A DNA stretch of 64,000 nucleotides from Octopus vulgaris (Eukaryota), in contig CATOCA020000001.1 in NCBI GenBank assembly GCA_951406725.2, positions 682,001 through 746,000 on the forward strand, given 5' to 3'. Positions 11,302-50,312 of this stretch are shown here, one piece after another. The notes under the pieces were generated by a model. The model saw only the letters and a program-made list of their open reading frames with translations. It was not told the origin of the DNA and searched no databases. The position numbers and the translations under genes were made by a program. Position 1 is the first letter of the stretch; every line of letters starts with the position of its first letter.

Positions 11302-12160
11302 TAAGGTCATCCCATTAGTTCTGTCCGAATTTTGAATAAAGAAAACATGTGATCAAATGTTATATTTAATTGAAATTTAATCATCAATGTACTTTCCCTG
11401 ATTATCTATGACTTCCTTCCATCTATTTACAAGCTTTTTAATCCCATCAATGTTAAAACTCTTTTGGTTTCAAAGCGAACAACTCTGAAATGTCAGTTTC
11501 GACCTCCTCCTGGCTTGCGAAAGTTATGTCCCCCAAGTGATTCTGTAAACTTCAAAACAAATGGTAGCCTGAAGGAGCATGGTCGGGAGAATAAGGTGGA
11601 TGAGGAATTTTCTCCCGACCCAGCTCTTCAATCTTCTGTGATGTGATCTTTGCAGTGTGGGGTTACACATTATCTGATGAAACATTACTCCTTTTCGATT
11701 CACTAAAGCAGGTCTTTTTTCCTTCAAAGCTTGGTTCAAACGCTCTAATTGCTGGCAGTAGACTTGAGCATTGATTGTTGCATTAGGTGGTAACAATTCA
11801 AAATGAATTACTTTTGCAATCCCACCAGATAGAGAGAAGAACCTTTTTCCCATGAAGTTCCCTTCTCGGTTGTGGTTGAGCCTTTTCCCTTTTACCAAGC
11901 CACTGCTTACGATGTTTAACATTTCGATAGCAGATCCATTTTTCGTCACCACTCACAAGTCTATCCAAAAAGGGTGAAATGAGTTCACAAGAATGGAGAG
12001 AAGAGCAGATGTCAACTCGGGATTTGTGGTTGCTTTTGGACAATTCACAAGGCATCCATTTTCCAAGTTTAGGAATCTTTCCGAGATGTTGAAGATGCCA
12101 ATGAACAGTTGTATGGTTTGAACTAAGCTTTATTGCCGATTCTTCAACAGATAATGCAGA
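11302..12160 (-). mobile_element. Decayed, 5'-truncated mariner (Tc1/mariner) transposon
   Basis: Frameshifted transposase pieces LVSGDEKWICY, KKVLLSIWWDCK and IHFELLPPNATINAQVYCQQLERLNQALKEKRPALVNRKGVMFHQ. A TIR-like end TAAGGTCATCCCATTAGTTCTGTCC sits next to TA at ~11300. Confidence 0.9.
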
Positions 12161-12404
12161 ACCAGCTCTTAGGGGTCAGTATGACTCAGGAAGGAATGTT
12201 TTGGAGGTGCATGGGTGAGTGGTTAGGGTGTTGGGTTCATGATTGTAAGATTGTGGTTTCGATTCCCAGACCAGGAAATGTGTTATGTTCTTGAGCAAAA
12301 CACTTCATTTCTGCCAAATCCTCTCCAGCTCATGCCAGTATAGGGAATGGACATTAAGTGATGATGATCATACAAGCACACACACACACAGAAGCAGACA
12401 GGCA

Positions 12405-19846: not shown

Positions 19847-19935
19847 ATTGGTCCTTTCCTTTCCTTCACTGCTGCACCTCCTCTCTGCGACGGGCACTAT
19901 AAAATCCACCACACTGCGGCATGGGCCTTTGTTCA
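19847..19935 (+). promoter_or_regulatory. Candidate RNA Pol II core promoter: inverted CCAAT box, TATA box and initiator region
   Basis: ATTGG at 19847-19851, TATAAAA at 19898-19904, and a pyrimidine-rich TTCATCC about 30 nt downstream. The local sequence is unique and CpG-rich, and a splice donor follows ~125 nt later. Confidence 0.6.
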
Positions 19936-20056
19936 TCCTGAGAGCTTCTATAGACCAGGAAGTCCCGCGGTACAAAAGCAAGAAAGAACAACACCTCGAA
20001 CTCATAAACGTGAACCAAATATACAAACCTATTAAGAACCTGTTTTATCAGTTGTG
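19930..20056 (+). other. Putative non-coding exon 1 (5' UTR) of the secreted YPH-rich protein gene
   Basis: No ATG between the inferred TSS and the donor GTG|GTAAGG (GT at 20057). The link to exon 2 is inferred. Confidence 0.5.
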
Positions 20057-28319: not shown

Positions 28320-28381
28320 TACAGTGTATATACACACATACATACATGCTTAATCTTCATTTTCAGAATCCTACCAACAAA

Positions 28382-28427
28382 ATGTATACGTATCTACTAC
28401 TTTTGGCCCTAGTCACCATCTTTGGAG
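28382..28427 (+). CDS. Exon 2 (exon starts 28367): start codon and signal peptide MYTYLLLLALVTIFG of a secreted Tyr/Pro/His/Gln-rich protein
   Basis: Acceptor CTTAATCTTCATTTTCAG|AATC; start context CAACAAAATG; hydrophobic core; donor GAG|GTAATG; phase 1. Confidence 0.85.
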
Positions 28428-28804
28428 GTAATGTAGCCTTTCTTTTCCTTACATTTTGATTGTGTGTATGTGTGTGTGCACACGTGTGTATCTGTGTTTG
28501 CGTGTGTATGTGCATGTGAATGTGTGTATGTTTGTGTGTGTGTGCGTAAGTATGCATGTGAGAGTATACACATATGTGATTGTGTGTATTTGCATGTATA
28601 TGTGTGTGTGTATGTATCTATGTGTGTGTATGCATGTAAGTGTATGTGTGTGTGTTTATGTGTGTATATGTATGTGTATATATGTATGTATGTATGTATA
28701 TGTATGAGTGTGTGTGTATGTATCTATGTGTGGGAATGCATGTAAGTGTGTGTGTGTGTATGAGAGTGTGTGTATGTATCTATGTGTGTGTATGCATGTA
28801 AGTG

Positions 28805-28849
<45 letters not shown>

Positions 28850-29166
28850 CTAAATGTTTTTATTTTTCATTCCCTTCGAAACTTTATCCCCAATAGTGGT
28901 TTGGAATTTAGCTGTTCTTTCTAGCGTGTAAGGAGTCCTATAATAGATGCCTCTTATGTGTTTAAATGTACACTGTATTTATATTAATGTGTGTATGTAT
29001 GCTTGTATGCTTGCACAAGGAAGTAGTTCTCTGTGTGTGTATATGTGTTGTGTGTGTGTATGTGTGTGTGTGTACATTTTTGTTTTTATATATAACTTTA
29101 TGTTTTTGTTTATATTTACACAATTTTTAATTCATATTTATTTAATGGTGTTATTATATTTTCCAG

Positions 29167-29193
29167 GACAAGCCGCAAGGGGAGAGGCTACAA
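29167..29193 (+). CDS. Exon 3, a 27-nt micro-exon encoding (G)QAARGEAT, which contains the predicted signal-peptidase site ARG|EA
   Basis: Acceptor TATTTTCCAG|GAC and donor CAA|GTAAGT. Symmetric phase 1-1, joining exons 2 and 4 in frame. Confidence 0.8.
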
Positions 29194-29228
29194 GTAAGTA
29201 AGACTACTTTTATGGGGAAAAGGGGTGG

Positions 29229-29271
<43 letters not shown>

Positions 29272-29445
29272 TGATGGTTGTAAATGAGATTCACCATCAT
29301 GCAAGCAGTGTATTTCGCTTCCAACCTTCCATTAAAACATACCTTGTCGTGGGAAAGAGCTACCTTACTTGGAAACAGATGGGGGTCTGGGAATCGAAAC
29401 CACGATCCTATGACCGTGAGTCCGCTGCCCTAACCACTGGGCCAT

Positions 29446-29520
<75 letters not shown>

Positions 29521-29533
29521 TAGATAGATAGAC

Positions 29534-29590
<57 letters not shown>

Positions 29591-29630
29591 TAGATAGACA
29601 TGTATGTTTAGATCTGTATGTTTAGATATG

Positions 29631-29686
<56 letters not shown>

Positions 29687-29715
29687 GACATGTATGTTTA
29701 GATCTGTATGTTTAG

Positions 29716-29758
<43 letters not shown>

Positions 29759-29798
29759 TAGATAGACATGTATGTTTAGATCTGTATGTTTAGATATG

Positions 29799-29834
<36 letters not shown>

Positions 29835-29882
29835 TAGATAGATAGATAGACATGTATGTTTAGATCTGTATGTTTAGATATG

Positions 29883-29918
<36 letters not shown>

Positions 29919-29962
29919 TAGATAGATAGACATGTATGTTTAGATCTGTATGTTTAGATATG

Positions 29963-29998
<36 letters not shown>

Positions 29999-30152
29999 GA
30001 TAAATATCAAAGTGAGTTATATACAGTAGTGGTAACACATCGTGACGCATATTTGCCATTTCAATATGGCTACCCCTAAGGGTGGATGCTACTGTAGTTT
30101 TTAGCCCCAGGAGGACACACTCCTCCAGCTGGCCATAGACACACTTTCTGTG

Positions 30153-30191
<39 letters not shown>

Positions 30192-30379
30192 CACTCAGAC
30201 ACACACACACTGACACATGCACAAACACATACACACACATAATGGCATATACACAGAGACATGCACACACACACACACACACACACACAACTAATTATAG
30301 AGTAGGTCAAATTTGTTCATTGTTACCATTAATAATCGACCACTTCGTTTAAATATTTCCCCGTTCATCTATCTTGCAG

Positions 30380-30938
30380 ATAAAACCTCCAATGCCACCA
30401 CGGATGACGGCCCTAGCAACATCTTTAGCCCTTACCACACACCCCAACAATATCCGGGTGCCGGGCAACAGCCGGGTGTCGGATACAACCCCGGATTCCC
30501 GTTTCCCTATCCTCAACAAAACCCACACACCCACCGCAAACGACAGCCACCACCCACTCTCACAATGCTCCCCATCATAGTGTCCAAGGTTCCTCCCAGC
30601 CTCAATTTCCGTTTGCTTTCCCCCCGCATGGCCACCACAGCAACCCAAATTACTTCACCACCTACCAACCAGGCTCAAGTAACCAAGGTAACCATGGCTC
30701 CCAAGGGCACACTTCACCTTTCCAATTCCCTTCCTCTTTCCCCTTCCAACAACAACAACAGCAGCCACATTTCCCACCCACCCACAACCAATACCCTTAT
30801 TACTCCCAATACCCCCACTACCCACACTACCCCCACTACCCACACTACCCCCAATACTATTATCCCCATTATCCCTATTATCACCACTACCCATACTACC
30901 CCTACTATCATCACTACCCTTATAACCAGCACTACTAA
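30380..30938 (+). CDS. Exon 4 coding part: mature low-complexity Y/P/H/Q/G/F-rich protein; needs one -1 frame change near 30522
   Basis: Acceptor TCATCTATCTTGCAG|ATAA. First frame reads NKTSNATTDDGPSNIFSPYHTPQQYPGAGQQPGVGYNPGFPFPYPQQN. The -1 frame continues PTHPPQTTATTHSHNAPHH...QPQFPFAFPPHGHH...FPFQQQQQQPHFPPTHNQYPYYSQYPHYPHYPHYPHYPQYYYPHYPYYHHYPYYPYYHHYPYNQHY with TAA at 30936-30938. Repeat variation is synonymous in that frame (TAC/TAT, CCC/CCA/CCT, CAC/CAT). Confidence 0.8.
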
Positions 30939-31549
30939 ACAAACCCTCACCCTCAAAACCCCTTTTTTCCTCCCCCATCCCACCCCTCTACTGACCTCCT
31001 AGTAAACACCCCCTACCCTACCCAACACCACCTTCTCCCTTCTGTCTCTTTTTTTTTTTTTAGCTCCTCTCCATTCTAGGCCTCCGGGGGGGGGGCCTCG
31101 GCCCCCTCGCCCCCTCCTAAGCAGATCCTTGCCACTTCTCCTGTGCCAGGATCACTCCTGCCTCCATCATGCCACTGCCTCCACCATCATGGCAGCCAGC
31201 AGCAGCAGCAGCAGTAGTAGTAGACATTCGTACCGCTCCCTTTATTTTCTGACCTTCCTCCACCCCACCCCCTCCACCTACCACCCAAACCAATCTTTAT
31301 TACCTAAACCACCCGACCCCTGACCTCTGTGCCCTCTACCCTATTGACCTCTTCCTTAAACCAAACTTACCAAGTAGACCAATATGATGCAATTCCACCA
31401 TGTAGACTAACAGAACTATGAACCTTGTACTTAGTTCGTGTTACCATTACTTTCGTCCCATCTTACCAGTAAGTATTAGTATTGTTGTAATTGTTGTTGT
31501 TACTATTGACTAAGAGAGCAGAGTGACGGTGGGGTACAAATACACAAAG

Positions 31550-32910
31550 GTCCCTGAATAAAGGTTGTTTAACCCTTTTAGTGTTCGCATTATTCTGCTA
31601 AAATTCTTCATCCACATTGTTTTGAAATAATCCTGCATTAATCTTGTAGCTATGAGATTTTGATGAGGTAGCTGTTAATTTTTAAAACGATATTGTAGGG
31701 TTGGTGTGAGAGACCAGATCTGGTCAGTTTGATCATAAAACAGGCAGAATATTTTTGGCCGGATATGGCCGGTTTCAATGCTAAAGGGTTAAGGATGTTG
31801 AACGAACCCCTCATGTTACTAAAGGTGAATTATTCGAAACCCCAAAGAATCCCTCTCAACACACGGCTATGATGCTCCCCCACTACTTCTGCTCCTGATC
31901 AGAGGTGCACATATCGTCAACCACTAAGGGACATGGTAAACTGGTTACGGTCAAACAACTGACAAACAAATCTGTGGTATTGAGCAGAATATTTGCTGTA
32001 GCCCATCTTTTATACCAAGACAAAACAATGTACATGATAACACTTCCAATCAGTTAAGATCAGTAGCCATGAGAGCCACTGCCTGGTACTGCATCAGGGC
32101 ATTAGCAAATCTGTGGTATCGAGCAAAATATTTGCTGTAGCCCATCTTTTATACCAAGACTAAACAATGTACATGTTAACACTTCCAATCAGTTAAGATC
32201 AGAAGCCATGAGAGCCACTGCCTGGTACTGCATCAAGGCATGGATCCATGAATAAAGGTTGTTTAAGGATGTTGAACAAACCACCCATGTTTCCAAAGGT
32301 GAATTATCCAAATCCCCAAAGAATCCCTCTCAACACATGGCTATGATGCTCCCCCACTACTTCTGCTCATGATCAGAGATGCACATATCATCAGCCACTA
32401 AGGGACATGCTCAATTGGTTATGGTCAAACAACTGGCAAGCAAATCTGTGGTATTGAGCAGAATATTTGCTGTAGCCCATCTTTTATACCAAGACAAAAC
32501 AATGTACATGATAACACTTCCAATCAGTTAAGATCAGAAGCCATGAGAGCCACTGCCTGGTACTGCATCAGGGCATGGATCCATGAATAAAGGTTGTTTA
32601 AGGATGTTGAACAAACCACCCATGTTTCCAAAGGTGAATTATCCAAATCCCCAAAGAATCCCTCTCAACACATGGCTATGATGCTCCCCCACTACTTCTG
32701 CTCATGATCAGAGATGCACATATCATCAGCCACTAAGGGACATGCTCAATTGGTTATGGTCAAACAACTGGCAAGCAAATCTGTGGTATTGAGCAGAATA
32801 TTTGCTGTAGCCCATCTTTTATACCAAGACAAAACAATGTACATGATAACACTTCCAATCAGTTAAGATCAGAAGCCATGAGAACCACTGCCTGGTACTG
32901 CATCAGGGAA
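31550..32910 (-). repeat. Tandem copies (~330-bp unit, about 3.5 copies) of an unclassified (TAA)n-associated element
   Basis: Repeated AATAAAGGTTGTTTAAGGATGTTGAAC...CAGAAGCCATGAGAGCCACTGCCTGGTACTGCATCAGG, abutting (ATT)n at 32910. Confidence 0.85.
31573..31788. mobile_element. piggyBac-type MITE (216 bp) with TTAA target-site duplication
   Basis: TTAA|CCCTTTTAG...CTAAAGGG|TTAA. The empty site GGTTGTTTAAGGATG is visible in neighbouring tandem units (~32257 and ~32592). Confidence 0.9.
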
Positions 32911-32922
32911 ATTATTATTATT

Positions 32923-33008
<86 letters not shown>

Positions 33009-33063
33009 CATTATTATTATTATTAAGGTGGTGAGCTGGCAGAATCTTTAGCATGCTGGATGA

Positions 33064-33479
33064 GGATCTTTTCGGCTTGAACGGCAGTCTTTTCTAGCGG
33101 TGTCATATGAAATTGTCACCCATAATTATGACCCTAGTATCGATCTATTGCATTTCAATCTATTTTAGGGTTAGGGTTAGGGGTGGAGGAAGGATATTTT
33201 TTTTCTTCAGAAATGTAAATAAACCCAATCTGTTTCTTAAACAAGGGACATATTCATACGGCACAGAATGTTTTCACCTCAATAGACATCATTGATTGGT
33301 TGAAATTGCAGAAATTGAAGAAAAAAACCCAACAAATATCTTACAAACTATAGAATTTTCTCAATAAAGCCAAAAGAAAAAGATGTTTTATAAACACATT
33401 CTACCAGTATACAAAGTTTAAAATTTTTTAGTTACGTGGAAATTATTTTAAAAAACTGCCGGTCAAACCAAAAAGATCC
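33064..33479. mobile_element. MITE with ~24-bp TIRs, 8-bp TSD and internal (TTAGGG)n; Merlin-like, superfamily uncertain
   Basis: TIRs GGATCTTTTCGGCTTGAACGGCAG / CTGCCGGTCAAACCAAAAAGATCC. CTGGATGA is duplicated at 33056-33063 and 33480-33487, inside a family B SINE. Other copies lie at ~56760-57171 and 59617-60040, with an inverted piece at ~61710-61810. Confidence 0.85.
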
Positions 33480-33564
33480 CTGGATGAAATGCTTAGCGGT
33501 ATTTCACCCATCACTTCAGGCCTTGTGCCTTTAACAGAAAGGATTGTTGTTGCTGTTTTGTTTG

Positions 33565-34287
33565 TTTGTTGAGCGAAGCAGTCTTCATCCCGTCTGTAGT
33601 GGGAGAAGTCCGAAACGTGGTCCTTTGCTATTCGTAAAACCTGCAGAAGAGAAAGCAGGTCAACCCCTGACACCGAGAGCATCGACGGATGGATGAATGC
33701 GCATCCAGGCTCAGCGGTTGCGTAGGAAGTCGGGGACAAGAAACAGGAAGAAAGAGTGAGAGAAAGTTGGAGTGAAAGAGTACAACAGGGGTCGCCACGA
33801 CCCCCTGCCGGAGCCTCGTGGAGCTTTAGGTGTTTTCACTCAATAAACACACACAACGCCCGGTCTGGGAATCGAAACCGCAATCCTCCGACCGCGAGTC
33901 CGCTGCCCTAACCACTGGGCCATTGTGCCTCCACTGCTGTTTCTGTTTCAGTTGCTGCTGAGCGAACGGTCTTCGTCCCAGAGTGGGAGAAGTCTGAAAC
34001 ATGGTCCTTTGCTATTCGTAAGACCCGCAGAAGAGACAGCAGGTCAACACCCCGACACCGAGGGGCATCGACGGATGGATGAATGCGCATCCAGGCTCAA
34101 CGGTTGCGTTTGTTGAGCGAAGCTGTCTTCGTCCCAGAGCTTGCAAGTAGTGGGAGAAGCCCGAAACCTGGTCCTTTGCTATTCGTAAGACCCGCAGAAG
34201 AGACAGCAGGTCAACCCCCCCCCCCCCACCCGACACCGAGATGGATGAATGCGCGTCCAGGCTCAGCGGTTGCGTAGGAAGTCGGGG
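33565..34287 (-). mobile_element. tRNA-derived SINE, family C (33565-33934), plus two extra 3'-tail copies (~33958-34108 and ~34110-34287)
   Basis: Minus-strand head GTGGAGGCACAATGGCCCAGTGGTTAGGGCAGCGGACTCGCGG...GGTTTCGATTCCC; the tail ends CTTCGCTCAAC. Confidence 0.8.
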
Positions 34288-34305
34288 TGTTGTTGTTGCT
34301 GTCGT

Positions 34306-34339
<34 letters not shown>

Positions 34340-34385
34340 GTTGTCGTCGTTGTTATTGTTGTTGTTGTTATTTTTCCCCCACTAG

Positions 34386-34770
34386 GTTCTACACAGTCGG
34401 TTTGAAACAGAGCTACCATCTTATGCAGCGAACGACGTTGGACGAAATTATTTTTTCAAGGCTTTCGACGCAGAAGAAATTTTAAAAAAAGGCAAAAAGA
34501 AAAAGAAAAGAAAACGGAAAAAAAAAAACAACAAGAAAAGGAAAACGAAAAGAAAGAAGGGAAAATACGAAGTTGACAGGAAAAAAAGGAAAAAAAAAAG
34601 GAAGAAAAAGAAGCAAACAAACACCTTTACATTCATTTGATGTCTCCTTCTATTTTTTTTTTTTCTTCGTCTTCTTCTTCTTCTTCTTCGCTGAAGGAAA
34701 AAGAAGAAAACGCAAAGTGATGAAATGTAAAAGAAAGATTGAAAAAATAAAATGAATTCAGATGCATCAA
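34386..34770 (+). other. Putative terminal non-coding exon (3' UTR) with poly(A) signal
   Basis: Acceptor TATTTTTCCCCCACTAG|GTT; AATAAA at 34746-34751 followed by a GT-rich tract. A matching upstream donor CCA|GTAAGT lies at 31468/31469. Confidence 0.45.

Positions 34771-48912: not shown

Positions 48913-50312
<1,400 letters not shown>

Follow-up and report, generated by a model that had tools for sequence, protein, structure and literature searches.

A spliced Octopus vulgaris gene for a predicted secreted Tyr-Pro-His repeat protein, found among three similarly built predicted neighbours

The octopus body includes a hard beak and a cuticle on the suckers. A Tyr-, Pro- and His-rich coding stretch in Octopus vulgaris raises the question of whether it belongs to a working gene and, if so, whether the product could be a component of such hard tissues. 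The window, that is, the whole 64,000-nucleotide stretch that was analyzed (G000:C31:682001-746000), comes from a 2.8-Gb genome rich in microsatellites. A sequence-only reading had proposed a three-exon gene here for a secreted Tyr-Pro-His (YPH) repeat protein with a structural or adhesive role. Part of the large exon is present in 20 of the 24 public runs listed, and four runs were analyzed over positions 30295-31560: X1 and X2 from organism A, X13 from organism B, and X17 from organism D. None of these runs is recorded as RNA and their RNA nature is a guess, yet they contain spliced joints and the genomic locus is single. Four runs from the same species hold next to no sequence words of the gene, a result that carries no weight as evidence.

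The gene is real and spliced. Hereafter called gene A, it is laid out on the forward strand as follows:
19898..20056, forward strand: candidate TATA box (19898-19904) and candidate non-coding first exon with a GTAAG donor, proposed from sequence alone
28367..28427, forward strand: signal-peptide exon with 15 nt of 5'UTR, the ATG at 28382, a hydrophobic core and a phase-1 donor; its last three letters are present in the spliced contigs of 4/4 runs
29167..29193, forward strand: 27-nt phase-1 microexon with a predicted signal-peptidase site, identical in the loose contig ends of 4/4 runs from three organisms
30380..31468, forward strand: large exon with the remaining coding sequence (stop codon 30936-30938) and 530 nt of 3'UTR, covered by contigs from 30380 to ~31470, donor at 31469
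34386..34751, forward strand: last exon, 3'UTR only, with AATAAA at 34746-34751, which we infer to be the transcript end

The proposed three coding exons with GT-AG borders stand as predicted, with GT at 28428, AG before 29167, GT at 29194 and AG before 30380, and coding lengths of 46 and 27 nt place both junctions in phase 1. Junction 29193^30380 is seen in all four runs: contig cover begins at 30380, with none upstream, and the loose 5' end equals the whole microexon. Junction 28427^29167 is borne out in part: three contig letters, the same in 4/4 runs, match the end of the signal exon, but only one of them discriminates against unspliced genome. The total of three exons was too low. A loose end behind 31470, present in 4/4 runs, has a unique genomic match at 34388-34417, after an AG acceptor, and adds the 3'UTR exon at 34386; at the other end, the loose 5' ends of the four runs measure 150-391 nt versus 88 nt of known exons. 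The candidate first exon (19930-20056) would contribute ~125 nt, which fits the 150-188 nt loose ends of three runs, not the 391 nt of X2.

In run X17, contig cover of the large exon has a hole in the 3'UTR. Contig depth is ~1600 and ~800 in two runs, a poor measure of expression level. Intron 31469-34385 begins 530 nt after the stop codon, and the contig is still deep in two runs, with no sign of junction-dependent decay. A genome search found a single locus and no extra copies of gene A. The X13 loose end at 30747 was considered as a paralogue and rejected, since its match is a CAA-repeat exon on G000:C30 that is unrelated to gene A (L013, G000:C30:11214375-11214404, minus strand); this exon follows an AG acceptor, has a Thr/Ala- and His-rich reading and is a near-match to the contig end.

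Within the large exon, the open frames of the assembly do not join directly, and four further features of the coding part are needed to follow the protein:
30538..30539, forward strand: two genomic bases that the transcript contigs lack and that shift the assembly frame; left out at 30536-30539 in 4/4 runs
30382..30788, forward strand: variable part, with sequons, Pro/Gln/Gly blocks, a Thr/His/Ser/Ala module, FPF blocks and His/Gly/Ser/Gln spacers; 33 amino-acid-changing and 2 silent sites
30605..30657, forward strand: hypervariable patch, in which a second X1 contig differs at 12/53 bases, with 11 codons changed, none silently
30789..30935, forward strand: YPH repeat tail of 49 codons; 0 amino-acid-changing sites and 1 silent site

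The one frame change that had been postulated is thus explained by a 2-base excess in the genome: without these bases, all four runs join the open frames into a product of 209 amino acids, close to the ~210 expected. The uncorrected frame, which would yield a Thr-rich product of 231 amino acids, has support in 0/4 runs. Either the assembly slipped here or the sequenced animal carries a broken allele. At sites 30513, 30515, 30959 and 30984, the genome carries the organism B state, unlike either organism-A run. The sequenced haplotype therefore differs from those of X1 and X2, and the two extra bases could belong to a genuinely broken allele on it. Between the frameshift and the splitting off of microexons, automatic annotation of this assembly likely misses or mistranslates the gene.

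The chain is predicted from hydropathy to be secreted (the 7-residue average of the signal exon reaches 3.6) and is probably disordered. The 188-residue mature chain consists of 19% Pro, 13% His, 12% Gln, 7% Gly and 3% Ala, with 21% aromatics. As claimed, 22 Tyr, 11 Pro and 10 His make up most of the last 48 residues, and two sequons lie at residues 25 and 29. Cys, Trp, Met and Leu are indeed absent after residue 21 in the organism-A transcript reading; the chain is not free of Arg, as had been thought, since this reading holds one Arg along with a single Lys. The Arg is His in organisms B and D, which also carry one or two Leu. With 24 His, the computed charge falls from ~+21 at pH 5 to +11 at pH 6 and +1 at pH 7. 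The chain has no dibasic processing site. A Pro-flanked 14-residue Thr/His/Ser/Ala module at residues 73-88 spans the corrected frame. Tandem repeats within the chain are confined to 30801-30934; codon use in the tail is mixed, and a microsatellite origin was therefore rejected.

The distribution of sequence differences divides the protein in two. We compared five haplotypes (the genome, two in organism A, and one each in B and D) read from assembled contigs, counting each site once and using no tree-based model. There are 33 amino-acid-changing and 3 silent sites, one of the 33 being re-read from gap placement, an excess over the neutral expectation with P = 0.033, 0.011 and 0.006 for transition weights of 1, 2 and 3. 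Omitting the low-depth second X1 contig leaves 26 versus 3 (P = 0.10, 0.046 and 0.028). All 33 changing sites precede the YPH tail, whose 147 nt hold one silent change and, in organisms B and D, an 18-nt in-frame deletion that removes two repeats. Indels between organisms are in frame in 3/3 coding cases and 0/4 UTR cases (p = 0.03). The UTR has 3 variable sites in the 350 nt spanned by long contigs (p = 5e-7), a count in which organism D covers part of the region, the short pieces in simple repeats at 31049-31228 are omitted, and the UTRs may themselves be constrained. The second X1 contig that defines the hypervariable patch has a depth of 6.5 versus 10.9 and shares its flanks with the first; 5 of its 12 variant states recur in organisms B and D, and a genome search found no donor for the 53 nt. 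RNA editing does not explain the differences, because only four are A>G. In this small sample, the pattern suggests that the front is under diversifying and the tail under purifying selection. An excess of amino-acid changes is seen more often in proteins of reproduction, immunity or venom.

Gene A has neighbours of the same build. A scan for frames rich in Pro, Gly, Tyr and His covered 1.046 Mb of the contig; once dozens of microsatellite and SINE translations had been removed by eye, it left four Pro/Tyr/His/Gly-rich coding exons at 488-716 kb (~230 kb) that we judged credible, with none in the remaining 820 kb scanned. Each gene is single copy, the three neighbours lie on the minus strand, and gene A faces away from gene B:
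G000:C31:622754-610870 (loci L018-L020), minus strand: gene B, predicted 8 coding exons and 301 amino acids, 28% Gly, 16% Tyr, 9% His
G000:C31:567914-562168 (locus L054), minus strand: gene C, predicted 191 amino acids, 20% Pro, 13% His, 12% Gly, 11% Tyr, four YPH
G000:C31:494431-488369 (loci L046-L047), minus strand: gene D, predicted 300 amino acids, 19% Pro, FPF-like blocks and a Thr/His module; the choice of microexons is uncertain

Genes B, C and D are genome-only models, and their frames of 301, 191 and 300 amino acids are stop-free. All four models share an acceptor, a short UTR, AAAATG, a hydrophobic exon of 12-15 codons, phase-1 microexons, a large last coding exon and an intron past the stop codon, which follows after 39 nt in B, 30 nt in C and 146 nt in D. 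A Pro-flanked Thr/His/Ser-rich stretch occurs in each protein; of 5000 shuffles, 6 reach it for A, 5 for B, 210 for C and 91 for D. In gene B, this stretch is an HTTHH module, accompanied by Thr/His/Val-rich microexons that each end near a Pro, 16 GGY and 7 GHGxY. Since pairwise alignments of the four proteins do not rise above window-shuffled controls (17-91 of 300 shuffles equal the score), common ancestry of the genes is argued from build and position only. Among the longest 150 of 193 unique open frames at 400-900 kb, we found no peroxidase, tyrosinase or chitin-binding domain, although short exons would escape such a search.

How do these proteins compare with known families? Squid beak proteins are produced in the buccal mass and occur in the beak. 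In their chains, Gly accounts for 20-35%, Ala for 16-19% and His for 10-16% of residues, and tandem GHGxY or GAGFA repeats occupy the C terminus (PMC9999432 section 3.4.3). The gene A product resembles DgHBP-1 to -3 in being a low-complexity, secreted-type chain with His as the main titratable residue and at a similar level, a non-repetitive front, His/Tyr repeats in the tail, and a clustered gene. It differs from them in its low Gly and Ala and high Pro and Gln, and in having a YPH repeat with 0 GHGxY and 0 GAGFA, against 7 GHGxY in gene B. Suckerins follow a [Pro-M1-Pro-M2] plan repeated 3-13 times, where M1 is 10-15 residues rich in Ala/Thr/His/Ser/Val and M2 carries GGY, GHY and GGL (PMC9999432 section 3.4.4). 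Like them, gene A is Tyr/His-rich, lacks Cys, lies in a cluster and has one M1-like stretch of 14 residues (86% M1-type); unlike them, it has a single module rather than 3-13, no M2, and 0 GGY, 0 GHY and 0 GGL. Gene B, in its genome-only model, has one clear unit in which the HTTHH module is followed by GGY repeats, with 3 GHY, but no GGL and 2% Ala. GHGxY, GGY and HTTHH-type motifs define beak proteins and suckerins (PMC9999432, PMC11931252). By its motifs, the gene A product is a member of neither family, carrying the defining repeats of neither. According to PMC9068888, suckerins and beak proteins are present in three squids and not in O. bimaculoides, which makes gene B notable, and D. pealeii has a cluster of 10 beak-protein genes.

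Other families are more distant. The chain shares with mussel foot proteins a Tyr-rich, secreted, repetitive and variable character. In mussel foot proteins, DOPA stands beside abundant Lys and Arg, keeping them cationic at seawater pH, and one Lys plus one Arg in the mature gene A chain weakens the mussel-like adhesive role that had been suggested. Reflectins are built on a Met-rich M/FD-x5-MD repeat; this motif occurs 0 times in the gene A product, which has no Met after the start. A Pfam scan at E<=1 gave no family and no chitin-binding domain for this Cys-less chain, the lone chance match to Cytadhesin falling far below the cut-off. As an analogy, the vertebrate amelogenin/SCPP cluster also encodes Pro/His/Gln/Tyr-rich disordered matrix proteins with P-X-X repeats, and its genes too have small in-phase exons and, at the ends, exons of UTR only; with no sequence match, and with phase-1 introns here, this would be convergence, not kinship.

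Searches of protein libraries of uncontrolled octopus coverage were empty, a weak negative: 0/464 candidates matched the C-terminal 135 amino acids at E<=0.01, 0/3 candidates matched the N-terminal 52 amino acids against longer proteins, and 132 amino acids had 0 matches among 1.84 billion representative proteins. The PDB gave 0 matches and the ESM Atlas one unnamed match at 0.77, which is unusable. The last exon of gene B drew five Gly-rich compositional matches, none a named cephalopod protein, and none from the Atlas. The tail DNA has 23 weak matches in the genome (68-87% over 47-162 nt), which were set aside, as no protein match accompanied them. Sequence, splicing and empty searches thus agree with the earlier view of a low-complexity secreted protein outside named families. 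The literature outside subscription journals gave no account of this YPH protein or of a suckerin-like octopus gene. Gene A is apparently undescribed, and other octopus annotations may contain it as an uncharacterised model.

The reading that we prefer, at roughly even odds (about 0.5), is that gene A encodes a disordered secreted protein of the extracellular matrix, which condenses by contacts of His and Tyr and then becomes cross-linked within a cuticle-type structure. The 209-residue protein and the predicted products of its three neighbours are likely building blocks of an acellular structure of this kind, with sucker cuticle or beak as the first candidates. The steps of pH condensation, cross-linking and cuticle-type placement are modelled on squid beak proteins, in which pH coacervation is driven by His deprotonation and Tyr stacking, and hardening of the matrix by His-catechol adducts (PMC9999432). 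Inside an acidic secretory granule, the chain would be kept charged and soluble by its 24 His; upon release to neutral or seawater pH, this charge would be lost, and the Tyr/His tail and FPF blocks would act as stickers, leading to condensation. Condensed Tyr and His could then be oxidatively cross-linked, as described for the squid proteins. The tail would be the conserved assembly part, while the front two-thirds would probably be exposed and diversify under selection by an outside agent or a partner. Speaking against this reading, the gene A product is low in Gly and Ala and has none of GHGxY, GAGFA and GGY, the motifs shown to drive coacervation; the frameshift of the assembled allele, the alignment scores of the four proteins and the lack of enzyme and chitin-binding domains among the frames scanned near the cluster also count against it. 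The structural role proposed earlier gains independent support from the gene cluster, chiefly from the suckerin and beak-protein motifs of gene B, but a plain structural role leaves the excess of amino-acid changes unexplained.

Because the beak-protein model does not account for the fast-changing front, two other functions stay in play. The main rival, which we regard as unlikely, is a role in reproduction, as part of a coat or glue (egg chorion, cement of the egg strings or spermatophore wall) that peroxidase cross-links at Tyr; the front of the protein would be shaped by sexual selection or egg-surface microbes. The 33-to-3 excess and the 12-of-53-base allelic patch suit such a protein, and insect chorion genes offer a parallel, being clustered and Gly/Tyr/Pro-rich. 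A polymerising cement is produced in the octopus oviducal gland, where chorion peroxidase is also expressed (PMC8976471). However, the sucker-tooth and beak motifs in gene B point elsewhere, and Pfam returned no chorion or cement family. It is less probable still that the protein is a soluble surface-defence or mucus component, its His-rich chain binding Zn, Cu or microbial surfaces and its front tracking microbes. Such a role would fit the secretion signal, the invariant acidic start with its two sequons, the 13% His and the diversifying selection; co-expression of a myeloperoxidase-like gene is reported for squid sucker cells, and production of antimicrobial peptides for octopus suckers (PMC9839350). 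Against this role stand the near-zero net charge at pH 7, the missing dibasic site, a 21% aromatic content that favours insolubility, and the structural cluster context. Surface defence and a cuticle-type structure are not mutually exclusive.

Least probable, in our judgement, is that the selection signal is an artefact of paralogues or mis-assembled contigs, and that gene A codes for a low-complexity secreted protein of an ordinary kind, under loose constraint and already present in annotation as an uncharacterised locus. The comparison has just five haplotypes, all read from assembled contigs, P weakens to 0.10-0.03 when the second X1 contig is dropped, and the octopus coverage of the libraries searched is uncontrolled. 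Yet the gene is single copy, the same changes appear in the two independent runs of organisms B and D, silent sites and UTR are nearly invariant, and editing does not account for the differences.

Returning to the cuticle-type reading, a bolder and doubtful extension is that the four-gene cluster is the missing octopod counterpart, possibly a homologue, of the squid suckerin and beak-protein arrays. The motifs of gene B would then predate the octopus-squid split, and gene A would combine a new Gly-poor YPH sticker with a front under diversifying selection, making it a material protein in an arms race. In any case, a cluster of secreted Tyr/His-rich genes, one of them with both motif sets, supplies direct candidates for octopus hard-tissue components. 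Gene A is a further variant among the His/Tyr-rich secreted material proteins of cephalopods, to which the selection pattern and the cluster add; the amino-acid-change excess with an invariant tail and the four-gene cluster of the same build both go beyond the sequence-only reading. Beak-protein peptides serve as pH-switched coacervate carriers; a YPH repeat poor in Gly would be a natural design of a new kind.

The cluster also makes the origin of suckerins and beak proteins testable through synteny. Domains among the 150 frames examined were limited to those of one MCM exon, one ankyrin exon and fragments of retroelements. An MCM P-loop exon (L038:934-1272, minus strand, near C31:403 kb) and an ankyrin-repeat exon (L057:8368-8655, minus strand, near 864 kb) are usable synteny anchors. 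Retroelement fragments with reverse transcriptase, RNase H and integrase domains lie at L053:493-1353, L059:6308-7623 and L060:681-1094, and the window itself holds two minus-strand frames, at 49156-49791 and 11524-12175, which we take from their motifs to be mariner-type transposase-like.
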